Assembly: GCA_046331705.1 (NCBI GenBank)
Contig: JAXLQJ010000054.1
Location: forward strand, 1 to 48,429
DNA length: 48,429 nucleotides
Direction: 5' to 3'
Source of the DNA: a bacterium
GTDB taxonomy: Bacteria; JADJOY01
The notes under the pieces are model-generated. The model searched no databases. It was given only the letters and a program-made list of their open reading frames with translations, and had not been told where the DNA came from. This document shows positions 29,798 to 48,429 of the stretch, piece after piece. The number at the start of each line of letters is the position of its first letter. Position 1 is the stretch's first letter. The position numbers and the translations under genes are program-made.

Positions 29798-29877
29798 ATC
29801 GAACGCCAGCCTGGGGCCCCGCAATACGCCGCAATCGAGACACGCCTGCCCCACGTGCGGTCCGTTTCAGCGTCCTG
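29798..29877 (-). other. Degenerate attC abutting an IS110 left-end remnant
   Basis: Ends TTTCAGCGTCCTG, matching CTGCAGCGTCTTG at 43448-43460; ATCGAAC core at 29798. Confidence 0.4.
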
Positions 29878-30021
29878 ACTCCATGAAGGCCCCCTCGGGA
29901 ACATCCCACCCCACGTTGGACGCTGACGTTGTCCACGAAGCCACGCGGGGAAGCCCATCGCGATTCTACAACGGCCATCGCGACCACTACTGTGCATGGA
30001 CCTGAACGCCCGCTCGATCTA
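29878..30021 (+). mobile_element. Truncated, decayed copy of the left end and first codons of the IS110 at 43461
   Basis: ACTCCATGAAGGCCCCCTCGGGAACATCCCACCCC...CGATTCTAC aligns with 43461-43604. Confidence 0.85.
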
Positions 30022-30184
30022 GCTCGCCGTCGGAGCCGAGTGCGTGTTCACCTGGCACGCGACCGAGCTGGATAGGAATACGCGCCCTGCGCGCGGATTG
30101 TGTCGGCGAGGCTTCGATGGAACACTCGGCAGGCGAGCAGCTCGCACCACTCCCTTCCGTTCGTTCCGGACTCATCGGACCCCG

Positions 30185-33100
30185 ATGACCCACGGCCCCG
30201 ACGTCTCCGTCTCGCTCGCCGCCTACCTGCCGCAAGACCGCCTCCGCGCCCTCGCGCGCGGAGAACCGATTCCCCGGCGCGTGACGGGTTCGGCGCTGCT
30301 GGCCGACCTGTCTGGATTCGGGGAGCTGACCGAAGCGCTGACGCGCGTCCGCGGACCGCGGCGCGGAATCGAGGAGCTCACCCGCGAGGTCAACGCGCTC
30401 TACGACGCCCTGATCGCCGAGGTGGAGCGCTTCGGGGGAAGCGTCATCGACTTCGCGGGCGACGCCATCACGTGCTGGTTCGACGGGGGCCAGGACGCCT
30501 CCCTCCGTGCCGTGACCGCAGCGTTCGCCATGCAAGCCGCCATGCAGCGCTTCCCTCGGGTCGCGCTCAAGATCGCGGTGACGAGCGGCCCCGCGCAGCG
30601 CTTCATCGTGGGGGACCCGAGCATCCAGTGCTGGGACACGCTGGTCGGTCACACGATCTCGCGCCTCGCGACCGCCGAGCGTCTCGCTGGCCCGGCCGAG
30701 ATCGTCGCCGATCCGGCCACCCATCGTGCGGTTTGCGAGAGCGTTCGCGCGACTCCACGGTGCGCCGAACCTCGCGAGCCCTTCTCTTGGCTTACGAGCC
30801 TGATGCACCCAGCGTCCGCGGTACCCACGGCATCGCCGGCAGCGATGCCCGCCGCCCACGATCTGCGCCCCTGGATCAATCCGGCGGTCTTCCTCCGCGA
30901 GCAGGGCGGACACGGGGCCTTCCTCACCGAGCTCCGCCCCACCACTCCTCTCTTCCTGCGATTCGACGGCATCGACTTCGAAGCCGAACCGGCGGCCGAG
31001 AGGCTCGACACGTTCGTCCGTCGCGTCCAGGCGGTGATCCGCGAGTACGACGGCACGCTGCTCCAGCTCACCATCGGCGACAAGGGCAGCTACCTGTACG
31101 CGGCCTTCGGCGCGCCCATCGCCCACGAGGACGACTCCCGTCGGGCGGTGAAGGCCGCGCTCGAGTTGCGGCGCGTCGCCGAGAGCCTGCCGTTCCTGAA
31201 GCCCGTGCAGGTGGGGATCACGTGCGGCACGACGCGGACGGGCGCGTACGGCGGCTCCACGCGCCGCGCCTACGGCGTGCTGGGCGACGAGGTCAACCTC
31301 GCGGCCCGCCTCATGACCCACGCCGCGCCGGGCCAGATCCTGGTCAGTCGGCGCGTCCACGAGGCGATCTCCGCCGCGTTCGCCTGCAACGCGCTCGCGC
31401 CCGTCCAGATCAAAGGCAAAGCGGATCTCCTGCCGATCTTCGCCGTCCACCGTGCGCACGCCGCGCAGGTTCCGCACCTGCACGAGCCGGCCTATGCGCT
31501 ACCCCTGGTCGGACGGATCAGCGAGCTCCAAACCATCGGCGAGCGCCTGGAGCGCACCCTCGAAGGAAAGGGCCAGATCGTGGCCATCCGCGCCGAGGCG
31601 GGGATGGGCAAATCGCGCCTCGTGGCCGAGGTCGTTCGGTCGGCTCGCGCAAGAGGGTTCGTCGCGTACGCCGGTGCAGCCCAGGCCGACGGTGTTCAGT
31701 CTCCCTACCTGGCGTGGAAACCGATCGCGAGCGCCCTCTTCGAGGTCGATCCCGCCGCGACCGCGTCCGACTCGGTTTCGAGTGTCGAACGCGTCGTGCG
31801 ACGACTCGCCCCGTCCCGCGTCCACGCGCTGCCGCTCCTGGTGCCGCTCCTCCCGTTCGAGATCGCCGACAACGACTACACCCGAGGTCTCGAGCCGCTC
31901 AATCGGCAAGGTGCGCTCCGCGCGCTCCTCGAAGACAGCTTCCGCACGGCGGCGCGAGAAGCGCCCGTGCTGATCGTCCTCGAGGACCTGCACTGGCTCG
32001 ACGGCGGCTCGCGGACGCTGCTCGAAGATCTGGCCCAGGGGCTCACCGACAGTCGGATTTGCTTCGTCCTCGCGTATCGCCCCGAGGTGCCCGGCCTCGC
32101 GGCGCCCAGTGTCGCGGCGCCCGGCTCCGAAAGCTCGATGCGCTTGGAACGAATGGCGTCCTACACCCTGCTCGAGCTGCCCGAGCTGACGCCCGCCGAA
32201 GCCGCGGAGGTGCTCCGCGGGAAGCTGGCGCGGCTCTACCCGGCGCGCGACGCGGAGCCTTCGCCCGGCTGGATCGAGCGCTTGACCACGCGAGCGCAGG
32301 GCAACCCGTTCTACCTGGAAGAGCTGCTCAACTACGTCCACGATCGCGGGCTGGATCCGTTCGATCCGGCCGATCTCGGAGCCCTCGAGCTCCCGGACAG
32401 CCTGCACGCGCTGATCTTGAGCCGCATCGACCGGCTGAGCGAACGGGAGAAGATCATCCTGCGCGTCGCGAGCGTCATCGGGCGGTCGTTTCGCGCCGCC
32501 TGGCTGACGGATTACTACCCGGAGCTGGGCGACGTCGCGGACGTCGGAGACGCTCTCGACCGGCTCGCGGAGCTCGACATCACCCCCATCGACCCGGCGG
32601 TGATCGAGCGAGCCCATCTCTTCAAGCACGTCATCACGCACCAGGCGACCTACGAGAGCCTTCCGTTCGCGACCCGCGCCGAGCTTCACGAACGATTCGG
32701 CGTTTATCTGGAACGGCAGATCGCCGCGGGAACGTTTCACGAAGCGGCGCTGCTGGACACCCTGGTCTTTCACTACGGCCGCGCCGAGAACGAAACCAAG
32801 GAACGGGAATACCTGTCGAAGGCCACGAGCGTGGCGCTGAGGACCAGCACGTTCATCACCGCACGGACGTATCTCACGCGACTCCTCGAGCAGACCCCCG
32901 CCCCGGACCCGCGGCGAACGGCGTTGCTCCTCGATCTCGGGGAGCTGCTCGCGACCACCGGAGATTTTCCTGGAGCGCTGACGCTCTTCGAGGAAGCACG
33001 AGACCTCGCCCGGACGGATGCCGAACGGGCGCGAGCGTTCTGGATGCTGGCCTACGTTCGGAGGGAAACCGGACTCATGCACCAGGCCTACGATCTTTAC

Positions 33101-33877
33101 GCCGCGGCCGTGCGATTCGCACGCGCCAGCGGAGACGAAGCGATCGTCGCGAACGCGCTCTCCTCGGCGGGAGTTTGTAGCGCCAAGCTGGGAAAGCTCG
33201 AGGAGGCGCAAGCCTTTCAGGAGGAGAGTCTCGCGCTGGCACGCAAGCTGGGTGATCCCGCGCTGGAGCTGAACGCTTTGCAGCGAGCGGGGTGCATCCT
33301 GGTCGCGCGATCCGAGTACGAACAGGGCGAGGCGATCTTCCTCGAGGTCTGTGCGCTGGCCGAGGCATCCGGCGAGCGGCAGAGCCTCATGATGGCGCTC
33401 AACAACCTGGGCTGGGTGACGGACAAGAAGCGGGAGTTCGCACGTTCGCGAGAATACGGCCGCCAGGCGCTGGCGCTCGCGTACGAGCTGGGATCGCAGT
33501 TGAGCATCGCGCTCTACCTGATCAATCAGGCCGGAGACGAGCTGATGGATGGCGACCTCACCAGCGCGCGTTCGCACGTACGCGAGGGCTGCCGATTGGC
33601 GCTGCGCCTGGGGGCCATGGGGCGTGTGATGCTGGCACTCAGGTCCTTCTCGCTCATCTTCTACGCAGAGGGGAAGACCGAACGGGCGCTCGAGGTGATC
33701 GGCATGGCACGCGCACATCCCGCATGGACCCACGACGACCAACGGAACACCGACGGGTGGCTCGAGGACTGGGCAGTCGATCCCGCGACGCTCGACGCGG
33801 CGTATGCGCGAGGAGCCGCGCTCGACTGGGACACGACGATCCGCGAGCTACTCAGCGACGATCCCGCCAACGCCTGA
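30185..33877 (+). CDS. Class III adenylate/guanylate cyclase (tandem domains) + STAND/AAA ATPase + TPR protein
   Basis: ADLSGF/FAGDA, GDKGS, GDEVNLAARLM, Walker A AEAGMGKS, Walker B VLEDLHW, GNPFYLEE, FKH, C-terminal TPRs. Confidence 0.92.
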   Translation: MTHGPDVSVSLAAYLPQDRLRALARGEPIPRRVTGSALLADLSGFGELTEALTRVRGPRRGIEELTREVNALYDALIAEVERFGGSVIDFAGDAITCWFDGGQDASLRAVTAAFAMQAAMQRFPRVALKIAVTSGPAQRFIVGDPSIQCWDTLVGHTISRLATAERLAGPAEIVADPATHRAVCESVRATPRCAEPREPFSWLTSLMHPASAVPTASPAAMPAAHDLRPWINPAVFLREQGGHGAFLTELRPTTPLFLRFDGIDFEAEPAAERLDTFVRRVQAVIREYDGTLLQLTIGDKGSYLYAAFGAPIAHEDDSRRAVKAALELRRVAESLPFLKPVQVGITCGTTRTGAYGGSTRRAYGVLGDEVNLAARLMTHAAPGQILVSRRVHEAISAAFACNALAPVQIKGKADLLPIFAVHRAHAAQVPHLHEPAYALPLVGRISELQTIGERLERTLEGKGQIVAIRAEAGMGKSRLVAEVVRSARARGFVAYAGAAQADGVQSPYLAWKPIASALFEVDPAATASDSVSSVERVVRRLAPSRVHALPLLVPLLPFEIADNDYTRGLEPLNRQGALRALLEDSFRTAAREAPVLIVLEDLHWLDGGSRTLLEDLAQGLTDSRICFVLAYRPEVPGLAAPSVAAPGSESSMRLERMASYTLLELPELTPAEAAEVLRGKLARLYPARDAEPSPGWIERLTTRAQGNPFYLEELLNYVHDRGLDPFDPADLGALELPDSLHALILSRIDRLSEREKIILRVASVIGRSFRAAWLTDYYPELGDVADVGDALDRLAELDITPIDPAVIERAHLFKHVITHQATYESLPFATRAELHERFGVYLERQIAAGTFHEAALLDTLVFHYGRAENETKEREYLSKATSVALRTSTFITARTYLTRLLEQTPAPDPRRTALLLDLGELLATTGDFPGALTLFEEARDLARTDAERARAFWMLAYVRRETGLMHQAYDLYAAAVRFARASGDEAIVANALSSAGVCSAKLGKLEEAQAFQEESLALARKLGDPALELNALQRAGCILVARSEYEQGEAIFLEVCALAEASGERQSLMMALNNLGWVTDKKREFARSREYGRQALALAYELGSQLSIALYLINQAGDELMDGDLTSARSHVREGCRLALRLGAMGRVMLALRSFSLIFYAEGKTERALEVIGMARAHPAWTHDDQRNTDGWLEDWAVDPATLDAAYARGAALDWDTTIRELLSDDPANA

Positions 33878-34755: not shown

Positions 34756-36399
34756 TCAGGCCGTGGCCGCGGACGAGTCGCCGGCGTGGACCCGAGCCCA
34801 GCGATCGGGCAGCAGCTCGGGTAGGCGTTCCGTCGGCCAGCCGGCGGCGAGCTTGGCGATCACGTCCGTGAGGTAGGGCAGCGGCGCCACGCTGTGCTGG
34901 GCGCAGGTGCGCATGAGGCTGTAGATGCGCGCCATGCGTCGAGCTGCATCGTGTGATCCGGCGAAAAGATAGTTTCGACGGCCCAGCGCAAGATCTCGGA
35001 TCTGACGCTCGCAGAGCGTGTTGTCGAGCGAGATCCGGCCGTCGTCGACGAATCGGGTGAGCGCGCCCCAGTGGTTCAGAAAGTACGCGCCGGCCTGCGC
35101 AAGCGCGCTGCTCGGTGGCTCGTGCTTCTGCACGGAGACGAGCCATCGGTGGAGCTTCGCGAGCTCCGGCACGGATCGCTCTCGGCGCTGAGCCGCGCGT
35201 TCCTCGGGCGCGAGCTCTTTCACGTCCGCGAGCTCCTCGAGCTTGTAGAGCCGACGGATCAAGACGAGTGGGTAGGCGACACGGCAGTCGGTGTCCTTGA
35301 GCTTGAAGAAGCCCCGCCGCGCGTGCGCCATGCACCCGACCTCGATCGCCTCCGCCACCTTTCCATTGTAGAGGCGATCGAACACGTTCGCCGCGTCGGC
35401 TTGGAGGTACCCTTTCCGACCAGCGAGGAAAGACCACGGTCCATCGTCACCCCGGCCCGTCTCGGCGTAGCGGAAGAGCACGTTGTGGTCGTCGCCGACG
35501 TAGCACCACATCGTGCCACGCTGGATGTTCTCGGAATGGTCCGGGTCGAGCACCTTGAGGCCCGAACCGTCCGCGCGCACCAGATAGGCACCCAGAACCT
35601 CGGCGGCGAGCACGTCATCGACCAGCGGCGCGATCAAGTCGCCCACGCCTGCGATCCAATCGGCCAGCGTCGAGACCGGTACCGTCACACCGCTGCGCGC
35701 GAAGATCCGGTGCAGCCGGGTGAGTGGCGTGTGGTCGTGAAACTTGGAGACGCAGACGTGCGCGAGCAGCGACGGCGCGGCGGTCGCGCCGAAGGGCTTC
35801 ACCGGCCCGGGCGCGGTGTGGATCCCGAGCTTGCAGCGTCCGCAGGCGTATTTGCTCAGGCGGTGGACGTGCTCGATGAAATGCCCCGGCACGTACTCGA
35901 GCACCCGCGTCGTGTCCGAGCCGATCCGACGCTCGGGCTGCCCGCAGCGAGCGCAAGTGCGCTCCCCGGGCTCGAGCTCCACGGCGTGCTCGCAGCGCTC
36001 GACCTTGCGGCGGTCGACGCTCGGCGCGCGTCGCTCGCGGCGCTTGGGCGCGTGAGCCTCGATCTCCTGGTCGAGCTTGGCGTCCTGGTCGTTCTCCGCG
36101 ACGACGTCGTCGGGCTTCTGCTCGACGGGGACCTCTTGGTCACCGAGCTTTTCGAGCAAGAGCTGAAGCTGGCCGGGATCGACTTTCTCGGTCCGTCGGC
36201 CGGCGCGCTCGGCCCGCAGCTTGTGGATCAAGAGCGCGAGCTCTCGGTTCTGGTCGAGCACCGCACCGAGGGCGGCGACGAACAGATCGAACGCTTCGTC
36301 GGTGCGTCCCTCGGCGACCAATGCCTGGGCCGAGGTCCGGATGTCGTCCGGAGAGAGCGCGTCTCGATGCGTGGGGGCGGTGGTCGAAGTGGAAAGCAT
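34756..36399 (-). CDS. tnpC: IS66 DDE transposase
   Basis: Leucine zipper, CxxC zinc finger, GCMAHARR, DNTLCERQIR, GRRNYLFAGS, LLPDRW. Confidence 0.95.
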   Translation of the reverse strand: MLSTSTTAPTHRDALSPDDIRTSAQALVAEGRTDEAFDLFVAALGAVLDQNRELALLIHKLRAERAGRRTEKVDPGQLQLLLEKLGDQEVPVEQKPDDVVAENDQDAKLDQEIEAHAPKRRERRAPSVDRRKVERCEHAVELEPGERTCARCGQPERRIGSDTTRVLEYVPGHFIEHVHRLSKYACGRCKLGIHTAPGPVKPFGATAAPSLLAHVCVSKFHDHTPLTRLHRIFARSGVTVPVSTLADWIAGVGDLIAPLVDDVLAAEVLGAYLVRADGSGLKVLDPDHSENIQRGTMWCYVGDDHNVLFRYAETGRGDDGPWSFLAGRKGYLQADAANVFDRLYNGKVAEAIEVGCMAHARRGFFKLKDTDCRVAYPLVLIRRLYKLEELADVKELAPEERAAQRRERSVPELAKLHRWLVSVQKHEPPSSALAQAGAYFLNHWGALTRFVDDGRISLDNTLCERQIRDLALGRRNYLFAGSHDAARRMARIYSLMRTCAQHSVAPLPYLTDVIAKLAAGWPTERLPELLPDRWARVHAGDSSAATA

Positions 36400-36501
36400 C
36401 GAGTGCGGAAGAACGTGAACGACGAGCGCGCACGGATATGCAACACGTGCAAGTCGAAAGCAAGAGGTGAAAACGAAAAACGTGAAAAATCAACCGAACG
36501 A

Positions 36502-36891
36502 TCACGCAAACGTTGCGACGACACCCGCTTCATGGCTCGGGCGTCGATACCAGCGCTTGCGTCGGACGACGTGGCGCAGGTCGATGCCTTCCAAGATCAT
36601 CGCGAGCTCCGCCCCGTCGACCTCGATGTGACGGCTGCCGACGGCGGGCGCCGTGGGGAGAATGAAGGTACCTCGCTCAAGGCGCTTGTAGATCAACAAG
36701 TATCCGGAGCGATCCCACGCCAAAATCTTGATCCGGTTTCTCCGGCGGTTGAGGTAGCAGAACAGGTGACCGGAGAGCGGGTTCTGGCGAATCACCTCGC
36801 GAGTGGCGGCGGCGAGCCCATCGAATCCGCGCCGCAGGTCGACGGGCTCCGCGGCGATGTACACCCGGACCGCCGACGGGAGCGTCAGCAT
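36502..36891 (-). CDS. tnpB: IS66 accessory protein TnpB (Orf2)
   Basis: PVDLRRGFDGL, NRRRNRIKILAWD, KRLERGTF. Confidence 0.95.
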   Translation of the reverse strand: MLTLPSAVRVYIAAEPVDLRRGFDGLAAATREVIRQNPLSGHLFCYLNRRRNRIKILAWDRSGYLLIYKRLERGTFILPTAPAVGSRHIEVDGAELAMILEGIDLRHVVRRKRWYRRPSHEAGVVATFA

Positions 36892-37253
36892 GCCGGTGCG
36901 CCTTCCACCACGTCGAGGATCTGCCGTAGCTCGGAGGGATCGACGCCCGGCGGCACGCGAACCCGTCGGCCGCCGAGCAAGACGATCTCGATGATCGGCG
37001 GCGCGAATGTGACCGTCGCCGGGTCGCCCCGTTCCACCACGCGCACTGGGTGGAAGCGAGCTGCGGAAGGCTGAGGGCCGTCGAGGTCCTTCGCCCAGCG
37101 GAGGATCCGTTTCGGATCGAGCTGGTAGCGCCGAGCGAACGCTGCGGCGCTCGCTTCGCTCCGACGCCACGCATCCACCACCCGGCGTGCATCCGCCTCC
37201 CGCCAGTACCGCCGCCGGGCGAGCCGGCGAACCGCGTCGCTGTCCGTCTCCAT
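36885..37253 (-). CDS. tnpA: IS66 accessory protein TnpA (HTH)
   Basis: WRRSEASAAAFARRY...RW, FHPVRV, IEIVL; overlaps tnpB start. Confidence 0.88.
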   Translation of the reverse strand: METDSDAVRRLARRRYWREADARRVVDAWRRSEASAAAFARRYQLDPKRILRWAKDLDGPQPSAARFHPVRVVERGDPATVTFAPPIIEIVLLGGRRVRVPPGVDPSELRQILDVVEGAPAC

Positions 37254-37392
37254 CGTGCGCCTCCTTGCGTCGATCGCCGATGCGATCGAGGAGGCGCAGC
37301 TTCACGCGGGACGCCGCGCGACGAAACATGGAACTACCGGACGGATACCCCGCGGCGACAGTAGATTACGCGATCAGACGATCGTAACCCGC

Positions 37393-37807: not shown

Positions 37808-37898
37808 GCCGAACGCAGAGCTCAGCGGCGATCCCGGACTAACACGAGCTCCAGACGAACGCACCCCGGTTACCGGCTGCTGCATCGACGAGTTCGCG
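37808..37898 (-). other. Integron attC site (intact-looking, 91 bp)
   Basis: Minus strand CGCGAAC-TCGTCG-ATGCAGC...GCTGAGCTCTGC-GTTCGGC; its R'' CGCGAAC complements the cassette start GTTCGCG at 38142-38136. Confidence 0.85.
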
Positions 37899-38885: not shown

Positions 38886-39026
38886 GCCCGACGTGGCGCT
38901 CGGCCTGGCTCGCTGTGGCCGCTACTCGGGCGCCACCGGCGATGTCGATCCTCGCTCATCGCCTCGCCCGCGCGAGCTATCCCATGCTCACCCGCGGTGA
39001 TCGGCAGGTGCAGCGCGATGTTACGC
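38886..39026 (-). other. attC site containing a 59-nt IS110 transposase fragment
   Basis: Minus strand GCGTAAC-ATCGCG-CTGCACCTG...CAGGCCGAGCGCCAC-GTCGGGC; 38942-39000 matches 44493-44551 at 50/59 nt. Confidence 0.65.
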
Positions 39027-41245: not shown

Positions 41246-41407
41246 TCGGGGAACCGGCCGTTTAGTGGTCCAGATCGTCGGACCGGGCGCCGCGCAGCCA
41301 TGGAGATTGAATAGAAGTCTACGGAGGGTTCTCGGACCCCGTGCCCTTGTCCGTCCTCCGCGCTCGATTGCGGCCAACCACCCAGAATCACGGGATGAGT
41401 TTCCCGA
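41246..41407. repeat. ~160-bp element with imperfect terminal IR; second copy at 45911-45923 + 48351-48429
   Basis: TCGGGGAAC...GTTTCCCGA; shared core GTGGTCCAGATCGTCGGACCGGG...ATGGAGATTGAATAG...GGTTCTCGGACCC. Confidence 0.8.
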
Positions 41408-41857
41408 ACGCTTGAGCGGGGCATCGCGCCCGCCACCGAGGCAGGCCGTAGTGGCGTCGCCAGCTCGCACGAGGGGCTCCTCGGGAGCAGACCGTGGGGC
41501 GGACATGACCGCCGAACGCGGGACGCCCACGAACAGACGACTGGGATCCGCGCGCCGGGTACCACGCCTCAAGCCCTGGTCTGGTCTTGCGGCTGGATGA
41601 GTGGGCTGCAACTCCGATTACCGTCGGCAGACGTGCCCGGATGTCGCGCATCGATTCCGGGGGACACGAGCTCAAGCGAGCTGGCGTGGAGCCTGGACCC
41701 GTTGGCTATGGACAAGGTAGCGGCGCCCGTGGGACCTACCGCGCAGCGGTTAGTTCAACCCAGATGGAATGAGAAGGCTGACCTCCCGATCACGAGATGT
41801 CGTAAACGATTCTCAAGGTTGGATCAACGGGCTCGAAGCCCAAACAGGAGGTCAGCC

Positions 41858-42930
41858 ATGAGCAATTAACCACGAAGTCCTTCGGATCGAGCGCAGGCCG
41901 CCTCGCTTCCGCCCTCACCGCCGGCCTCGACGTCGGCGACCGCCACTCGACGATGTGCTTCATCGACGCCGCCGGCGAAACGGTCGAGCATGCGCGGGTG
42001 CGCACCACTCCGAGGCGCTCGAGGGCATTCGGCCACCGCGCACCGCGCTGCGCATCGCCCTCGAGGTGAGTACCCACTCTCGATGGATCCGTCGGCACGT
42101 GGCTGCTCGTCGAGGCTCGGTCACGAGGTGTTCGTCGCGAATCCACGTCGGGTCCGAGCGATCTACGAGAGCGACACGAAGACCGACAGCTCGGATGCCG
42201 AGATGCTCGCGCGACTCGCGCGGGTCGACCCGAAGCTTTTGTGTCCCGTCCGACATCGCCGCGAGGACCGAGCCCGGGCGCTCGCCGTGGTGCGCAGTCG
42301 CGACGGGCTCGTCCGCGCGCACGCTCTGCTCATCAACCATCCGCGGTGCCATCAAGCCGGTCGGCGGTCGCGTGAAGCACTGTTCGTCCGAGAGCTTCGC
42401 ACGCCAGGCGCCGGAGCAGATTCCCGCGGAGCTGCAGGCGGTGCGCTGGCCCGTCATCGAGCAGATCGGCCACCCTGACCCACGCCCGTCCGAGAAGTTC
42501 GATCGGCAGATCGAGCAGCTCTGAGCAATTCGACGCACAGCGACTGCGGGAGATTCAAGCGTTGGTCCCCGTGACCGCGCTCACCTTCGTTTTGACCGTC
42601 GACGACCCGGCGCGGTTCCAGAACGCCCGCACGATCGGACCTATCTCGGACTTTGCCCCCGGCCGAAAACAAAGCGGCCGGGACGATCCGCAGCTCGGCA
42701 TCATGGCGCTGGGCGGCTCATGCCTGCGCAAGCTCGTCGTCACCTGCGCGCAGCACGCTAGGCCATTCGGCAAAGATGGCGCCTTGCGCCGCTGGGGACT
42801 CCAGCGAGCAGGCAGCAGCGATCGGATCGCCAAGAAGAAAGCGGTCGTTGGCGTCGCCCGGCGACTGACCGTCGTGATGCTGCACCTGTGGGTGAGTGGC
42901 GAAACCTACCGGCCGTTTCCGACGCCCGCG
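41858..42930 (+). pseudogene. Frameshifted IS110 DEDD recombinase
   Basis: Fragments GLDVGDRHS, IALEV, VANPRR...KTDSSDAEMLARLAR, PVTALTFVLTVDDPARF, QSG and KKKAVVGVARRL in different frames. Confidence 0.9.
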
Positions 42931-43089
42931 CCACCCGCGCGACCGCCTTCCCCGGAAAAAGACCGTCGAGAAGAAGGAGGAAGGCGGCATAGCCGACGTC
43001 AGAGAAACGAACACCAGATGGAACCGATGGAGCAACGGAACGCCGCACGGCGCAGGTCGCGCGATCTCGGCGACCAGCACCGGCCGCCT

Positions 43090-43230
43090 CGTCCGGGTGA
43101 CTGCGAGCTGAGCAGGCCCTCCGGGGCAGACCACCAACAGATGGCGGCACCAGGGCGAGTCGGACTCCAACCTGCACCGAGCTCACCGAACGAGCTCGCG
43201 GTACGAATGAGCGTGGCGTCCGGTGGTTCG
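43090..43230 (+). ncRNA. Putative bridge/seekRNA core of element B
   Basis: Two stem-internal loop-hairpin modules sharing GACT...GCA[hairpin]...TGGCG; loop 1 carries GCTGAGC and CAAC (target matches), loop 2 carries GAATGAG (element left-end match). Confidence 0.65.
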
Positions 43231-43541
43231 CCCGCCGCCTTCGATCGTCGGCCCCGCGACGGTCGGCCTTCCCGACTGCTCTTCGAGAAACCGTTCATCT
43301 ACCCGCGAATACAAGGCTCAAGAACGGGCACCGCCGCCTCAACAAGGACGTGAACTTGAAAGGGAGGAGAGCCTTCTCATGGAAAGAGCTCAGCAGCGGC
43401 CCCAGACTACCGCGAGGTCCAGACGAGCGCATCCCGGGTGCCGTCTGCTGCAGCGTCTTGACTCTATGAAGGCCCCCTCCGGAACGTCCCACCCCATGTG
43501 GGACGCTGGTGTTGCCAACAACCCCAACCGGAGGAGACCCA

Positions 43542-44585
43542 ATGCGATTCTACACCGGACAGCATCAGCACTACTGCGGCATCGACCTCCACGCTCGGTC
43601 GATGTACATCTGCGTCCTCGACCAGGCCGGCGAAGTCCGTCTTCACCGCAATTTCCCGACGACACCCGTCGCCTTCCTCGAGGCCGTCGCACCCTTCCGC
43701 GAGGGACTCGTCGTCGGCATCGAGTGCATCTTCACCTGGTACTGGCTCGCCGACCTCTGCGCCGCCGAGAAAATCCCCTTCGTTCTCGGCCACGCCCTCT
43801 ACATGAAGGCGATCCACGGCGGGAAGAGCAAGAACGACAAGATCGATAGCCTCAAGATCGCGACCCTTCTCCGCGGTGGAACGATTGCGCAAGCCTACGT
43901 TTACCCTCCCCAGATGCGAGCGACCCGCGATCTCCTGCGCCGGCGAACCCACCTGGTGCGTCGGCGCGCTGAGCTGATCGCCCACGCGCAGAACACCCAC
44001 CACCAGTACAACCTGCCCGCGCCGGGAGCACGGCTGGCGTACAATTCGAACCACGTCGGCGTCGCCGAAGCCTTCGCCGATCCGACCGTGCGTCGCAGCG
44101 TCGAGGTCGACCTCGAGCTCGCGCGGATTCTCGACAAGCGCATCACCGAGCTCGAGCTCTACCTGGTGCGCCAAGCGAAGGAGCACGACCCGAAGGCCTT
44201 CCACCTGCTGCGCTCGATCCCGGGCGTCGGCAAAGTACTCGCGCTCACCATCGTCTATGAGATCCACACCATCGAGCGCTTTCCAACCGTGCAGGACTTC
44301 GCGTCGTACTGCCGGCTGGTGAAGTGCAGCCGAGAGTCCGCCGGAAAGGTTTACGGTACCGGCGGAGCCAGGATGGGAAACGTCCACCTCAAGTGGGCCT
44401 ACTCGGAGGCAGCGGCGCTCTTTCTGCCCCGCAACCCCGAGGGTCAGCAGCTGCGCGACCGGCTGGCGCGCAAACACGGCAAGGGGAAAGCCATGTCGAT
44501 CCTTGCCCATCGGCTCGGGCGAGCGAGCTATCACATGCTCCGCCGCGGTGAGCCCTTCGATCGGAGGCGCTTTATGAACGGCTGA
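43542..44585 (+). CDS. IS110 DEDD recombinase/transposase (347 aa)
   Basis: GIDLH, GIEC, KNDKID (D-E-D-D), LRSIPGVG, RESAGK (Ser), AHRLGRASYHML; GGAGGAG RBS. Confidence 0.96.
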   Translation: MRFYTGQHQHYCGIDLHARSMYICVLDQAGEVRLHRNFPTTPVAFLEAVAPFREGLVVGIECIFTWYWLADLCAAEKIPFVLGHALYMKAIHGGKSKNDKIDSLKIATLLRGGTIAQAYVYPPQMRATRDLLRRRTHLVRRRAELIAHAQNTHHQYNLPAPGARLAYNSNHVGVAEAFADPTVRRSVEVDLELARILDKRITELELYLVRQAKEHDPKAFHLLRSIPGVGKVLALTIVYEIHTIERFPTVQDFASYCRLVKCSRESAGKVYGTGGARMGNVHLKWAYSEAAALFLPRNPEGQQLRDRLARKHGKGKAMSILAHRLGRASYHMLRRGEPFDRRRFMNG

Positions 44586-44597
44586 CATCATGGGGAG

Positions 44598-44990
44598 GCG
44601 CGGGTGAGCTCCGTGTTGAACTGGGATCCGTCAGGGCCGAGCTCGTCATCGACGTCCAGCGACATCTCCGCCACGAGCGGTACGCGAATGTCATGAGACA
44701 CGTGCCCGGAAAACCGTTCGTTTTGACTAGCCACCCGCGCTTGCCCCGCCCTTCATCGAACCGTACCGAGACTATGGTCTTTCGCTGGCTCTGCTCCTCC
44801 CCGAGCCCGCAACGAACTGGCTTCGAGCCTGACCTTTTGATTGGGACGGGAGAGGACACGAAATGGTTTCTAGGCCGCCGCGTGTGCGATGCGCGGCAAC
44901 CGCCGCGAGGGGGTTGAGCCTCGATAGGTGTTTGGTGCAGCGCCACGTTCGTGGTGCGAGCGCCGTACCTGAAACAAAGTCAGAGTCGCG
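44598..44990 (+). ncRNA. Putative bridge/seekRNA of element A
   Basis: Stems GCGCGGGTG/CACCCGCGC (44598-44740) and TCCTCCCCG/CGGGAGAGGA (44795-44856), each enclosing GAGCYC...GAACTGG...TTTTGAYTRG. Confidence 0.6.
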
Positions 44991-45096
44991 TCAAGCGCCA
45001 GGCCAGGTCTCGAGAGAGGAATTGCGGTGAGAACAAAACCGCTAGGGAGAGGTGTGCGCTTGACGGACGGGGGCCTTATAGGAGTTCGGCTCAGCG

Positions 45097-45579
45097 TCAA
45101 AACCAGCCTTTGTGCGTGAAGCACCCACAGGTTGGGATGAATGCATGTGTCACAACGAATCCACACAGGCACCAAGAAGTCGAGTCGAAGTGATTATCGA
45201 CTGCGACCAATGTCCGATCCTTGAACTCAAGCACTGTCTCTCGATATCCGACAGGTAGTACGAGCGGTACGGGTACGACGACAACGAGTGCGAGAAGGCC
45301 AGCGAACGCCATGTCCTGTTCGTAATACCACCAGACAGTGTGATCGTGGTCCTCGACACGGTCGGGGTCACCCCATAGCGCTCGGACGATTTCTTCTGTG
45401 TAAGGTTCTGGCGGGTCCCGGGGCGGGGTGCTCGACAACCACGACACACGCCCCCGCTCTTCCGCTAGATAGACAAACGAGCCGCGTTGGACGGCATCCC
45501 CGAGGATCCCGCCGCCCATGCATCCGGCGGTGATCTGGACAATTGCCAGGAGCGCGGCTGTGCGGAACCGGCGATTCAT
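45097..45579 (-). CDS. Hypothetical lipoprotein cassette gene (BamE/SmpA-like segment)
   Basis: Lipobox TAGC; EIVRALWGDPD...WWYY; stop 6 nt before R'' GCCGAAC. Confidence 0.75.
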   Translation of the reverse strand: MNRRFRTAALLAIVQITAGCMGGGILGDAVQRGSFVYLAEERGRVSWLSSTPPRDPPEPYTEEIVRALWGDPDRVEDHDHTVWWYYEQDMAFAGLLALVVVVPVPLVLPVGYRETVLEFKDRTLVAVDNHFDSTSWCLCGFVVTHAFIPTCGCFTHKGWF

Positions 45580-45604
45580 ACCTGCCCTGGTCGCGTGCTC
45601 GCCA

Positions 45605-45704
45605 TTGGAACGAAAAGGATTCTATCCAGGGTGCTCGGGCCGAGGTTGTGCGTCGTCCGGGGTGAGAGCCGGCCCCGAGCGGTCTGGATAGGATCCCGTT
45701 GGAC
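45605..45704 (-). other. Atypical attC-like palindrome (100 bp)
   Basis: Minus strand GTCCAAC-GGGATCCTATCCAG...CTGGATAGAATCCTTTTC-GTTCCAA; next ATG 25 nt downstream. Confidence 0.6.
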
Positions 45705-45745
45705 TAGACCGCGGTGGGAGGCCGTAGGCGTCTTCCCCTATGGGG

Positions 45746-45774
45746 ATTGTTGAGGAGGACGGTCCCGCGGTCAA
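45746..45774 (-). promoter_or_regulatory. Putative sigma-70 promoter in an ORF-less cassette
   Basis: TTGACC-17nt-AACAAT pointing down the array. Confidence 0.45.
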
Positions 45775-45959
45775 GGGCGGCGGGTGGGGTTGTTGATGGC
45801 AGGATGGCCGGGAACGGACCGTTCGAGCGTCGGTGGCACCGGTAGGATCGCTCGCGACTGGCTACCGGAGAGTGAGACAGACATGGCCGTGCCAACCGGT
45901 GGGCGTGGGTTCGGGGAACCGGCTGATCGGCGTCAACTAGTCCTGCCTGTTGACGACAA

Positions 45960-46763
45960 CTATTTCTTCCCCTTCGCGGATGCGTCACCGCCCATCGGTG
46001 CGCCCGCATTGCGTTTCTTGGCTACCTCGGTCCGATAGCTCGGCACGTCGAATTCGAGGATCGTCGAGTTGTGGACGATCCGGTCGATGGCAGCGACGGT
46101 GGCCATCGGGTTGTGGAAGATCTGGTCCCACTGGCTGAAGACCAGGTTGCTGGTGACGATCAGCGAGCGACGCTCGTAGCGCTCTCCCATCAGGGTGAAG
46201 AGCACGTCGGTGTCCTCGGCGCCCTGGTGGACGTAGCCCAGGTCGTCGAGGATCAGCACGTCGAAGCGGTCGAGCTTCTTGAGCTCGCGCGGCAGACGGA
46301 GCTCGCGCTTCGCGAGCAGAAGCTGCTGCACGAGGCGGTAGGTCGCGGTGAAGAGCACCGCGTGCCCGTGCTCGACGAGCCGGTGGCCCAGCGCTGCCAT
46401 GGCGTGCGTCTTGCCCGTGCCGGGCAGGCCGAACGCGAGCACGTTCTCCCCGCGTTCGACGAAGTCACCCTTCGCGAGATCGTCGAGCTGTTGGCGCAGC
46501 TTCACCGGCAGACGCTGGAGATCGAAGCTCGACCAGGTCTTGCCGATGGGCAGCTTCGATTCGGCACGCAGCCGTTCAACGCGACGTTGGGCGCGGTCGG
46601 TGGCTTCCTGCTCGAGAACGTCGCCCAGGGTGGGCAGCGCGTCGGCATGGCCGGCTCGGGTGAATCGAGGCACGGCCTCGGCGCCCACGGTGGGTAGATG
46701 GAACGAACGGCACAGCACGGCAATGCGGGCGTTGACGTCCACCGCTTCGGCCCTCGGCTTCAT
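45960..46763 (-). CDS. istB: IS21 helper AAA+ ATPase
   Basis: GLPGTGKT, LILDDLGY, RYERRSLIVTSN, AAIDRIVH. Confidence 0.96.
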   Translation of the reverse strand: MKPRAEAVDVNARIAVLCRSFHLPTVGAEAVPRFTRAGHADALPTLGDVLEQEATDRAQRRVERLRAESKLPIGKTWSSFDLQRLPVKLRQQLDDLAKGDFVERGENVLAFGLPGTGKTHAMAALGHRLVEHGHAVLFTATYRLVQQLLLAKRELRLPRELKKLDRFDVLILDDLGYVHQGAEDTDVLFTLMGERYERRSLIVTSNLVFSQWDQIFHNPMATVAAIDRIVHNSTILEFDVPSYRTEVAKKRNAGAPMGGDASAKGKK

Positions 46764-48241
46764 CGCTCACCTCCGACGAGGAACGCGTCGTACACGTGGA
46801 GATCGGGCTCCGGGATCGCAATCTCGGGCACCGAGGGCTTCGGCGGTGCGACTCGCTCTCGGACGTCGGTGTAGGAGAAGGGCTTCCCCTCGGCGAGCAG
46901 CTCCGTCAGCGCTCGCTCGACGCTGCTCTCCATCGTGCTCGCGGCCAGGTGCAGCACCCGCACGTACTCGACGTCGGCGCGTTCGCCGCGGCACGCAACG
47001 AGCGCATCGTAGGTCCGCCGGAAGACCTCGCTCGGGAAGAGCCCTTCGCGATAGCGGTACCGGGCGAACGCACCGGGCTTGCGCACCAACGACCAGATCA
47101 CGTGCCGGTAGTCGATCCGGTACTCCTCCGCGCCGCGCAGGCGTGGCATGCGCTCGACGGGCTGACCGCCGTAGAGAATCTCGACCCAGTCGGGATGCAA
47201 GCGCGCCTCGACCTCGTGACCGATCAGCCGCGACGGGACCGAGTACGTGCGGCCGCCCACTCGAACTGTGCTCCAGCGGTGCACCTGGACGCGGTACGTC
47301 GAGTACGCCGGCACCGGCGATGGCGGAAGCGGGCGTAGATGCGGCCGCTCCTCGGCGAGCCGCGAGTCGAAGCGGCGATTGCGGCGCTCCACGACGGCTT
47401 CGACGAAGGCTTCGTATGCAGCGAGGTCCACGAAATCACGGCTGCCGCGGATCACGAGCGCTTGTCGGAGCGCGTCTTTGAGGCGGCGGTTGGTCTGCTC
47501 GACGACGCCGTTCTCGTTCGACTCACCGGGGCGAATCCGAGTGGACTCGATCCCGTAGTGGTCGAGGACCGAGGCGAAGCGCTCGTTGAGGACGCGTCCA
47601 CCCTCATGCTTCAGGTCGTGGGTCGCCGCCGAGAGATTGTCCGTGCGGGCGACGGCGGTCACCCCACCGAGCCGCCAGAACGCCGCCTGCAGCCCGGCGA
47701 CGAGCGCCTCGAAGGTCTCGCCGAACACGACCTTCGCCCAAGTCCACCCGCTGAAGCTCAGCACCAGCACGAACAGCAGATGGTCGAGAGGCTCGCCGGC
47801 GATCGTCACACCGAGCTCGCGCGCATGCGTGAAGTCGAGCTGCGCCTCGCGTCCCGGCGGGTGTTGCTGGGGGAAGAACACCTCCCGCTCACCGCCGTGC
47901 AGCGCACGCCAATCGCGGAGGCGGCGCTGCAGCGTGCGGAGCTGACCCGCCGGGAACTGGCCCGGGTGACGATCCTCGAGCCAGTCGAAGATCGTGGTGG
48001 CCTGCAACACGCCGGCTTCGTCCGTCTGGAGCAGCGGCACGATCTCGCTCGCCCAGACCGACTCGAATGGATCGGACCGCGTGCGCCACAGGCGTGGCTG
48101 CCGCGCTTCCGAGGGCAACGGTCCCCGCTCCCACTCTCGGGCCGTACGGACACTCATGCCCGCCGCGGCTGCCGCCGCTTCCTGCGTCTTTCCGTCCATG
48201 CGCTTCTGCCTCAGCAGGCGCACCTGGGCATCCGTGACCAT
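46760..48241 (-). CDS. istA: IS21 DDE transposase
   Basis: PGREAQLDFT, RTDNLSAA, ENGVVE, YSVPSRLIG; ATGA overlap with istB. Confidence 0.96.
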   Translation of the reverse strand: MVTDAQVRLLRQKRMDGKTQEAAAAAAGMSVRTAREWERGPLPSEARQPRLWRTRSDPFESVWASEIVPLLQTDEAGVLQATTIFDWLEDRHPGQFPAGQLRTLQRRLRDWRALHGGEREVFFPQQHPPGREAQLDFTHARELGVTIAGEPLDHLLFVLVLSFSGWTWAKVVFGETFEALVAGLQAAFWRLGGVTAVARTDNLSAATHDLKHEGGRVLNERFASVLDHYGIESTRIRPGESNENGVVEQTNRRLKDALRQALVIRGSRDFVDLAAYEAFVEAVVERRNRRFDSRLAEERPHLRPLPPSPVPAYSTYRVQVHRWSTVRVGGRTYSVPSRLIGHEVEARLHPDWVEILYGGQPVERMPRLRGAEEYRIDYRHVIWSLVRKPGAFARYRYREGLFPSEVFRRTYDALVACRGERADVEYVRVLHLAASTMESSVERALTELLAEGKPFSYTDVRERVAPPKPSVPEIAIPEPDLHVYDAFLVGGER

Positions 48242-48429
48242 CGGCTGGGGTCCCTCCCGGACCGCAGCCAACGTCAACCGACCACCTCAGGCGAGACCGG
48301 CAGATCTAATCGTCGTCGACCGGCAGAAGTAATTGTCGCTGATCACCGGCCGTTTGGGTGGTCCAGATCGTCGGACCGGGCACCGCGCAGCTATGGAGAT
48401 TGAATAGGGGTCTGGAGGTTCTCGGACCC

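Follow-up and report, generated by a model that had tools for sequence, protein, structure and literature searches.

Integrons are the main bacterial gene-capture system, and their attC sites fold as single strands. How one such site can come to hold two different insertion sequences (IS) is the question raised by a 48.4-kb stretch of bacterial DNA (contig JAXLQJ010000054.1 of assembly GCA_046331705.1). This stretch, called the window here, is the whole of contig C54 in an 8.17-Mb draft genome of 70% GC, whose other contigs are numbered in the same way. At positions 41753-45091 a single integron attC is interrupted by two IS110-family elements, A and B, which both lie on the plus strand and are 74 nt apart. 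Very probably, one chromosomal integron attC was invaded twice by two unrelated RNA-guided elements of the IS110 family.

An attC site in three pieces

The interrupted site lies on the minus strand in three pieces. The first (41753..41763) carries the R' core, GTTGAAC on the minus or top strand, together with the part of the spacer that reaches as far as B's AG core. The second (43387..43460) contains the L' box, the central region, the L'' box and a spacer, and the third (45085..45091) is the remainder of the R'' core, whose minus-strand sequence is GCCGAA/C, A having entered just ahead of the C (a slash marks a junction throughout). The initial annotation had claimed that removing both elements restores an attC, and this was borne out. 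When 41735-41764, 43388-43460 and 45085-45110 were joined by script, the restored join matched an attC profile built from the genome's own 85-nt repeat over positions 3-85 of 85 with 76.5 bits; an intact reference attC of the same family (37810..37894, minus strand) scores 65.6 bits. The second piece alone gives a profile match of 68.5 bits at 43385-43460 and is 82% identical, ungapped, to 37817-37887 (repeat family D1). To the left of the first piece, the cassette at 41246-41759 has a 92% identical counterpart with an intact attC at C23:88134-88648.

The 85-nt repeat could instead be a generic palindromic repeat, and the elements ordinary repeat-targeting IS110 members such as ISPa11 or ISPpu9, as IS110-family elements often target repeats of the repetitive extragenic palindromic (REP) type. 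Moreover, the minimum free energy of the restored attC (-16.3 kcal/mol) is not better than that of mononucleotide shuffles of this 70% GC sequence (z = -0.3), so that structural support for the attC comes from covariation. Among 15 intact copies, compensatory changes occur in 4 of the 10 predicted pairs of the L-box stem, and the unpaired columns 76 and 83 are confined to the plus strand's 3' arm. In attC sites, extrahelical bases characterize the R''-L'' (double-prime) arm of the bottom strand. The copies also have inverse cores, ..AAC / GTT.., which together with a covarying stem bearing two bulged bases on one arm speak against a generic repeat. Their distribution does so as well: the profile has 22 matches in the genome, clustered by three intI genes with a spacing of 370-2340 nt, and the array attCs lie on the strand opposite to the profile orientation, 3' of each intI. 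These integrase genes (L001-L003; C59:21710-22654, C44:3476-4420 and C23:90368-91282) score 363-451 bits against a TIGR02249 cut-off of 265 and are followed on their 3' sides by 4, 5 and 1 attC matches, respectively. Relatives of A in other phyla also sit beside intI. The generic-repeat explanation deserves almost no credence. An Rfam scan of the window returned 0 families, Rfam being without the IntegronFinder attC model.

The orientation of the site follows from the cassette that owns it. A cassette reading frame of 160 aa (45097..45579, minus strand) ends 5 nt from the third attC piece; because this frame, read from 45579 to 45097, ends beside the attC, the cassette direction is the minus strand. 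A paralogous cassette on C23 is arranged likewise, with the end of its reading frame beside its attC. The attC top strand is therefore the minus strand of the window, and A splits the R'' core (GCCGAA/C) as the mirror of the integrase's G/TT. B occupies the junction of L' and spacer, 5 nt from the R' core GTTGAAC. This agrees with the first description of the locus, which had placed A at the edge of the R'' core and B between L' and R'. The transposase genes of A and B alike run antisense to the cassettes.

Two unrelated elements

Element A (43461..45084, plus strand) is an IS110-family element of 1624 bp, delimited by its junctions, its repeats and a family alignment. The left junction at 43450-43477 reads ..GCAGCGTCTTG/ACTCTATGAAGGCCCCC and the right junction at 45069-45090 reads GGGGGCCTTATAGGAG/TTCGGC, the span being ambiguous by one G. 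The core dinucleotide is TG on the left junction and AG on the right, and the subterminal repeats are TATGAAGGCCCCC (43465-43477) and GGGGGCCTTATA (45069-45080). The intact transposase gene (43542..44585, plus strand) encodes 347 aa with PF01548 and PF02371, and matches NF033542 with 205 bits (cut-off 140). It is flanked by 499 nt of non-coding DNA past the stop codon versus 81 nt ahead of the start. A search with the transposase returned 171 plasmid records.

A-type ends abut attC sequence ..TG or TT.. at four other places, namely window position 29877, C10, C23 (right ends in both) and C2. The first belongs to a 167-nt A-type left-end fragment at 29855-30021, 77% identical to A of the window, which lies just upstream of a long open frame (30044-33877) and is preceded by an attC-like remnant ending ..TTTCAGCGTCCTG. 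Because an A-type left end and an attC remnant stand there, the array or its debris starts near 29.8 kb. An isolated 62-nt fragment of another A-type copy, at 38939-39000, is 84% identical to the 3' end of the A transposase gene.

Element B (41764..43386, plus strand) is an IS110-family element of the IS1111 type, 1623 bp long, delimited by its junctions, the repeat pair I7 and an alignment of copies. Its left junction at 41753-41777 reads ..GTTCAACCCAG/ATGGAATGAGAAGG and its right junction at 43371-43394 reads ..CCTTCTCATGGAA/AG/AGCTCAGC. Since the 3-nt AGA is common to both junctions, 41764-43386 and 41765-43387 describe one insertion. The core dinucleotide is AG at both junctions, and the subterminal repeats are ATGAGAAGGCT and AGCCTTCTCAT. 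The transposase frame in the window is broken by a frameshift and only domain fragments remain, but a copy at C2:268189-269817, 94% identical, has an intact frame of 379 aa that matches NF033542 with 228 bits (cut-off 140). A further copy at C30:17304-18825 is 88% identical, and all three copies in the genome (C54, C2 and C30) follow AACCCAG and precede L-box sequence. As in A, the non-coding region after the transposase gene is longer than that before it. The B transposase search returned at least 5000 plasmid records.

The two transposases are only 26% identical to each other, and the subterminal repeats and core dinucleotides differ as well, as had been proposed for the inverted repeats and recombinases when the locus was first annotated. 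A and B are unrelated lineages. The genome has 8 IS110-family matches at 6 places, all of A type or B type, and each lineage recurs at its own attC position, so the attC preference holds in the other copies.

Wider families and their positions in attC

Relatives of A number 364 matches in species-representative metagenome-assembled genomes. They are 58-70% identical over residues 1-345 and belong to many phyla, including Acidobacteriota, Binatia, Planctomycetota, Nitrospirota and Gemmatimonadota. Of these, 79 loci were fetched, and both ends could be defined in 42. The left flank ends in TG in 40 of the 42 and has the consensus ..C.GCTGCAGCGCCTTG; 35 have TG at the start of the right flank, 38 have TT directly after the 2-nt core, and in 20 the G with the next 6 bases fits GTTRRRY. 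Of five tested loci, three are antisense to an integrase match and located on its 3' side at a distance of 1.7-9 kb. The fourth (L021) has no integrase match on its contig, and another locus of the same genome (L022) is 24 kb from a partial integrase; the fifth has no integrase within 160 kb. The same layout of intI and cassettes was seen next to A-family relatives in three other genomes. A strict regular expression for further attCs near the relatives of A found none, and an inverse core 45-140 nt upstream of the insertion was present in 6 of 40 cases against 3 in the controls. As half of R' is supplied by the next cassette in an array, this search is poorly suited to the question.

For the B family, a single-protein query of the genome contigs found 0 relatives of B and an alignment query was needed; the latter found 587, which are 44-57% identical. 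The closest relatives of B are 79% and 65% identical. Junction and guide counts were made on 53 elements with defined ends, of which 48 have AG at both junctions. Most of the relatives have inserted into other sequences of various kinds. Three (L117, L151 and L174; 48-53% identical) occupy attC-like sites but use a third position there, between ..GCGAG and AGTCCGCTGCA, adjacent to the central L box. In the site of L174, GCCTAAC and GTTAGGC stand about 70 nt apart. Since most relatives sit elsewhere, attC targeting in the B family looks acquired by reprogramming.

Predicted guide RNAs

A mechanism by which two elements could occupy one site is suggested by the non-coding regions. Each element would encode a guide RNA 3' of its transposase gene, in which an internal loop carries two short guides. 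The 5' guide (T guide) would pair with the top strand of the right flank plus core, and the 3' guide (B guide) has the sense of the left flank plus core, so that it would pair with the bottom strand. The guides of A would read CGTCTTG and GTTCGGC, that is, spacer and R'' core, and those of B, taken from the C2 copy, AACCCAG and AGCTCAGC, that is, R' core, spacer and L' box. Because these target words do not overlap, both elements would fit one site.

For the B family, the last 620 nt of each element were searched for its own flanks and for flanks swapped between members. A left-flank guide (left flank plus AG) with a match of at least 7 nt was found for the element's own flank in 28 of 53, compared with 20 of 611 swapped pairs; a right-flank guide (reverse complement of AG plus right flank) with at least 8 nt was found in 18 of 53, compared with 5 of 611. 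Among the matched pairs listed, the two guides are 24-52 nt apart, with the right-flank guide on the 5' side. The same order has been published for IS1111-type seekRNAs. Twelve B-family regions share a frame consisting of GGGTGACTGCG, the T guide, a hairpin, the B guide plus AT, and then GCAGCACC, and 6 of 16 pairs in the RNA loop show compensatory changes. The C2 copy carries GCTGAGCT and then AACCCAG(ATGG), from which the target of B would be AACCC-AG-CTCAGC. In the window, a remnant of the target-binding loop is predicted at 43090..43160 (plus strand; stem GGGTGACTGCG .. GGCGGCACC), where the T guide GCTGAGC is kept (43107-43113) and the B guide is damaged (43132-43144). With its guide region damaged and its transposase frame broken, the window copy of B would be mobile only with help in trans.

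In A, a plain k-mer comparison of the non-coding region with the flanks yielded no more than 6-8-nt matches, among which no guide stood out; it took a family alignment to reveal the guides. Anchored exact matching was likewise weak for the A family, as the first base of the core is not read. The predicted target-binding loop of A (44597..44741, plus strand) is closed by the stem GGCGCGGGTG / CACCCGCGCT and carries the T guide GTGTTGAAC (44613-44621) and the B guide TCGTTTTGAC (44718-44727). In a 19-sequence alignment, 20 of the 22 predicted pairs of the family RNA show compensatory changes. The 5' side of the family loop, nCGYCTAAC, pairs with GTTAGRCG, and its 3' side, ..GCnnTTGAT, corresponds to left flank plus core, followed by the initial bases of the element's left end. 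In the window, the T guide pairs with GTTCGGC through two G.U pairs and the B guide corresponds to CGTCTTG plus AC with one G.U pair. Thus 7 and 9 contiguous flank bases are paired, the 9 including the first 2 nt of the element's own left end, with three G.U in all. The AC in the B guide agrees with the left end of A itself, which unusually reads ACTC.. where ATAC.. is the norm. Two covarying cases back the way the guides were assigned: L054 has the guide TCGAAC with the flank TTCGAT and the left guide TGGATGAT with the flank TGGATG, and L077 has 9-10-nt matches on both sides.

A third non-coding module of A (44912..44945, plus strand), GATAGGTGTT / ATAGGTGTT, equals the right-end extension, the core and TT; its ATAAG or ATAGG tracks the element's own right end in the sequences shown, which makes it a candidate donor-side or handshake guide. 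A second module (44790-44855) resembles a copy of the target loop (ACGAAC .. TTTTGATT), and both extra modules are built on a GAGCC frame.

The proposal that two lineages were separately programmed against different boxes of one recombination site has held up, as each recurs at its own position and the guides match the element's own flanks within a covarying loop. The insertions would prevent the attC from folding, so that the cassette would be frozen and joined to the neighbour downstream of it; with excision, the site would be restored. The initial annotation went further and suggested that precise excision could switch cassette mobility reversibly, a role that stays hypothetical.

Evidence from reads and points against a double insertion

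Part of the window is contained in 20 of 24 listed public runs, from 12 activated-sludge and wastewater studies. All contig-read evidence comes from the Logan contigs of four runs, which were aligned to the window. Contigs identical to A were found in all four. Two of the runs, which come from two studies, have a contig joining 41749 to 43387, with 15 letters in between that repeat 41750-41761 and continue with GT, not AG. This joint is an uninterrupted attC allele at the B site without the B core, its shorter side being only 28 nt. No joint across A was found among the listed contigs of the four runs, although a gap in contig cover carries no weight as proof. In run X1 a contig joins 41751 to 45609 with 6 letters in between, an array variant without the cassette and both elements; other contigs join the right end of A, or the attC, directly to 45609, with short sides (20-33 nt).

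The double insertion might be an artefact of assembly, in which repeated IS copies were misjoined. The draft consists of 118 contigs broken at repeats, the B region has many indels, and no listed Logan piece spans the 73-nt attC middle together with both elements. Support for the adjacency comes from the paralogue on C2, where B, 22 nt of attC, the 3' part of A and the same cassette occur independently at 93-94% identity. In addition, the junctions are exactly as the core rule of each family predicts. Misassembly is accordingly given very little credence. The C2 locus (L009, C2:264000-271500), in which A begins from its position 1298, differs from window 41757-45644 by a deletion that starts in the attC middle and extends into A; on the left side of the R' core, too, the two sequences disagree. 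Two histories would account for this: duplication of the cassette together with its insertions, or independent hits on the two copies.

Several further observations weigh against the double invasion by guided elements. No listed Logan piece bridges 43384-43511, and the reads for this reason give no independent adjacency of B, the attC middle and A. The right junction of A has AG, whereas the family has TG. Between the window copy of B and the C2 copy there are 27 indel events alongside 53 substitutions, an unusually large proportion of indels; relative to the window, the Logan contigs over B show 34-37 letter differences and 55-58 gaps. The A region, by contrast, is letter-perfect in contigs of the four runs. 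The apparent decay of B may be real, or part of it could be local consensus error.

As to the guides, their expression is predicted from sequence. The match of A requires G.U pairing, and with wobble allowed 56 other 13-mers of the genome fit, among them two exact A target words at C4:61126 and C67:18782. The B target 13-mer occurs twice elsewhere, at C10:196309 and C71:28131; the sites of these four exact words are all unoccupied. Because all four lie in long open frames, selection could explain their vacancy. Thus 13 nt alone may not define the target, either through selection or because more than 13 nt, or the folded state, is read.

Genomic surroundings

From about 29.8 kb to its right end, the window is a cassette array rich in insertion sequences, which also contains an IS66 element (34756-37329) and an IS21 element (45960-48277). 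In the cassette arrays 3' of each intI, integrase and cassettes are oriented alike. A non-coding stretch of about 800 nt, 92-96% identical, is common to several cassettes and lies between the preceding attC and the cassette reading frame. Copies are found in the window (41246-41759, 45609-45923 and 48358-48413), on C23 (L012, 3833-4646) and at C10:48221-48445; one window copy is split by the IS21 element.

Comparison with known systems

Publications on IS1111-type elements that target attC go back to 2008, and those on their guide RNA to 2024. Like this IS1111-attC group, A and B belong to the IS110 superfamily and have subterminal repeats, a long non-coding region after the gene and an antisense insertion in attC. 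PF01548 and PF02371, the IS110 domains, are present in A; for B, the intact C2 copy scores above the NF033542 cut-off and the window copy keeps only fragments. Subterminal repeats and downstream non-coding region, the IS1111 features, are present in both. The seekRNA of the group also has its top-strand match 5' of its bottom-strand match, as do the predicted guides of A and B. The hosts of A and B are chromosomal integrons of uncultured environmental bacteria, unlike those of the IS1111-attC group.

The initial annotation had viewed the two as IS1111-attC elements, a framing that fits neither of them. According to Siddiquee 2024, ISKpn4, ISPst6 and ISPa25 share one position at one attC end, the transposases of the group are 46-86% identical among members, and IS1111 proteins of 330-350 aa have the C-terminal motif GL-P----S(t)G. 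A paper of 2010 describes insertion of ISPa21 and ISPst6 near the attC 5' end, antisense to the cassettes. ISPa21, the member compared directly, is found in plasmid pME-1a, where it is antisense to the cassettes and has smr and qacEdelta1 on its two sides. The flanking sequences, ..CGGCTTGAA/ and /GAATTGTTAGCG, put its insertion point in the L''-adjacent spacer, at a distance of 3-5 nt from the R'' core (GTTAGCG). In pairwise blastp against ISPa21, A is 23% identical (E 9e-6) over 244 residues, B is 27.5% identical (E 7e-26) and IS4321 is 30% identical. With ISPa21 as the member compared, both A and B fall outside the position and the identity range of the group. The family consensus of the B-type C-terminus is GLVPRRxQSG in a protein of 379 aa, against the IS1111 expectation of GL-P----S(t)G and 330-350 aa.

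It could still be argued that A is a distant member of the described group whose offset lies within the range of that group, and that only B is new. A resembles ISPa21 in using the R'' end, in its antisense orientation, in having subterminal repeats and in the non-coding region downstream of its gene, and the direct comparison covers one described member, ISPa21. However, 23% identity is far from the 46-86% given for the described members in Siddiquee 2024. The right end of ISPa21 is 3-5 nt from GTTAGCG, whereas the right end of A abuts TT. A and its relatives carry RLVKC..ESAG (SA, without GL-P) at the site of the IS1111 motif, although 347 aa is within 330-350. Furthermore, the A transposase matches 0 of the thousands of IS4321-like plasmid copies at E 1e-5. 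Membership of A in the described group is therefore improbable. Invasion by two unrelated lineages is the preferred reading, in which A shares end and orientation with the IS1111-attC group but not position or clade, and B uses the other arm. The described members of the group are reported to use one position at one attC end; A lies inside the R'' core and B on the R' arm.

In the literature searched, which did not extend to the founding papers and supplements, no report of other attC-targeting lineages or of double occupancy was found, and neither was a description of the A family, whose 364 matches mark integron arrays in uncultured phyla. Two further lineages at two further attC positions, both with readable guides, amount to natural guide reprogramming against one structured site. 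They offer a system for testing whether bridge and seek recombinases see duplex or folded strand, and whether the insertions freeze cassette arrays. A broader view, put forward tentatively and with rather less than even confidence, would regard attC as a convergent hub for RNA-guided IS110-type elements, used by at least three deep lineages at different registers. These would be the IS1111-attC group in the R''/L'' spacer; the A family inside the R'' core, across phyla, beside integrases facing the same way as cassettes; and two B branches, one at the junction of R' spacer and L', the other in the central region by the L box. The U-rich guide of A may use G.U pairs to accommodate degenerate core purines, double hits would lock cassettes, and the near-identical IS-laden cassette on C2 hints that locked cassettes may still be copied.

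Beyond the IS1111-attC group, the closest systems are the bridge RNA of IS621/IS110 and the seekRNA of ISEc11, in which, as here, a DEDD recombinase is combined with an RNA loop whose two guides address opposite strands around a 2-nt core. The RNA of IS621 is encoded upstream of the gene, whereas the predicted RNAs of A and B lie downstream, as in IS1111 types. The target of IS621 is a linear word, in contrast to the structured recombination site used by A and B, and the guide of A needs G.U pairs. IS4321 and IS5075 are IS1111-type elements that target the inverted repeats of the Tn21 family, with one copy in plasmid pME-1a; their target differs, and the transposase has a 26% local match to A (about 150 residues) and to B (about 245). 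Group IIC-attC introns likewise home to attC near one end and antisense to the cassettes, but they are retroelements with a ribozyme and a reverse transcriptase, and their mechanism is unrelated. A and B thus extend the known integron-parasitising habit of RNA-guided IS elements.

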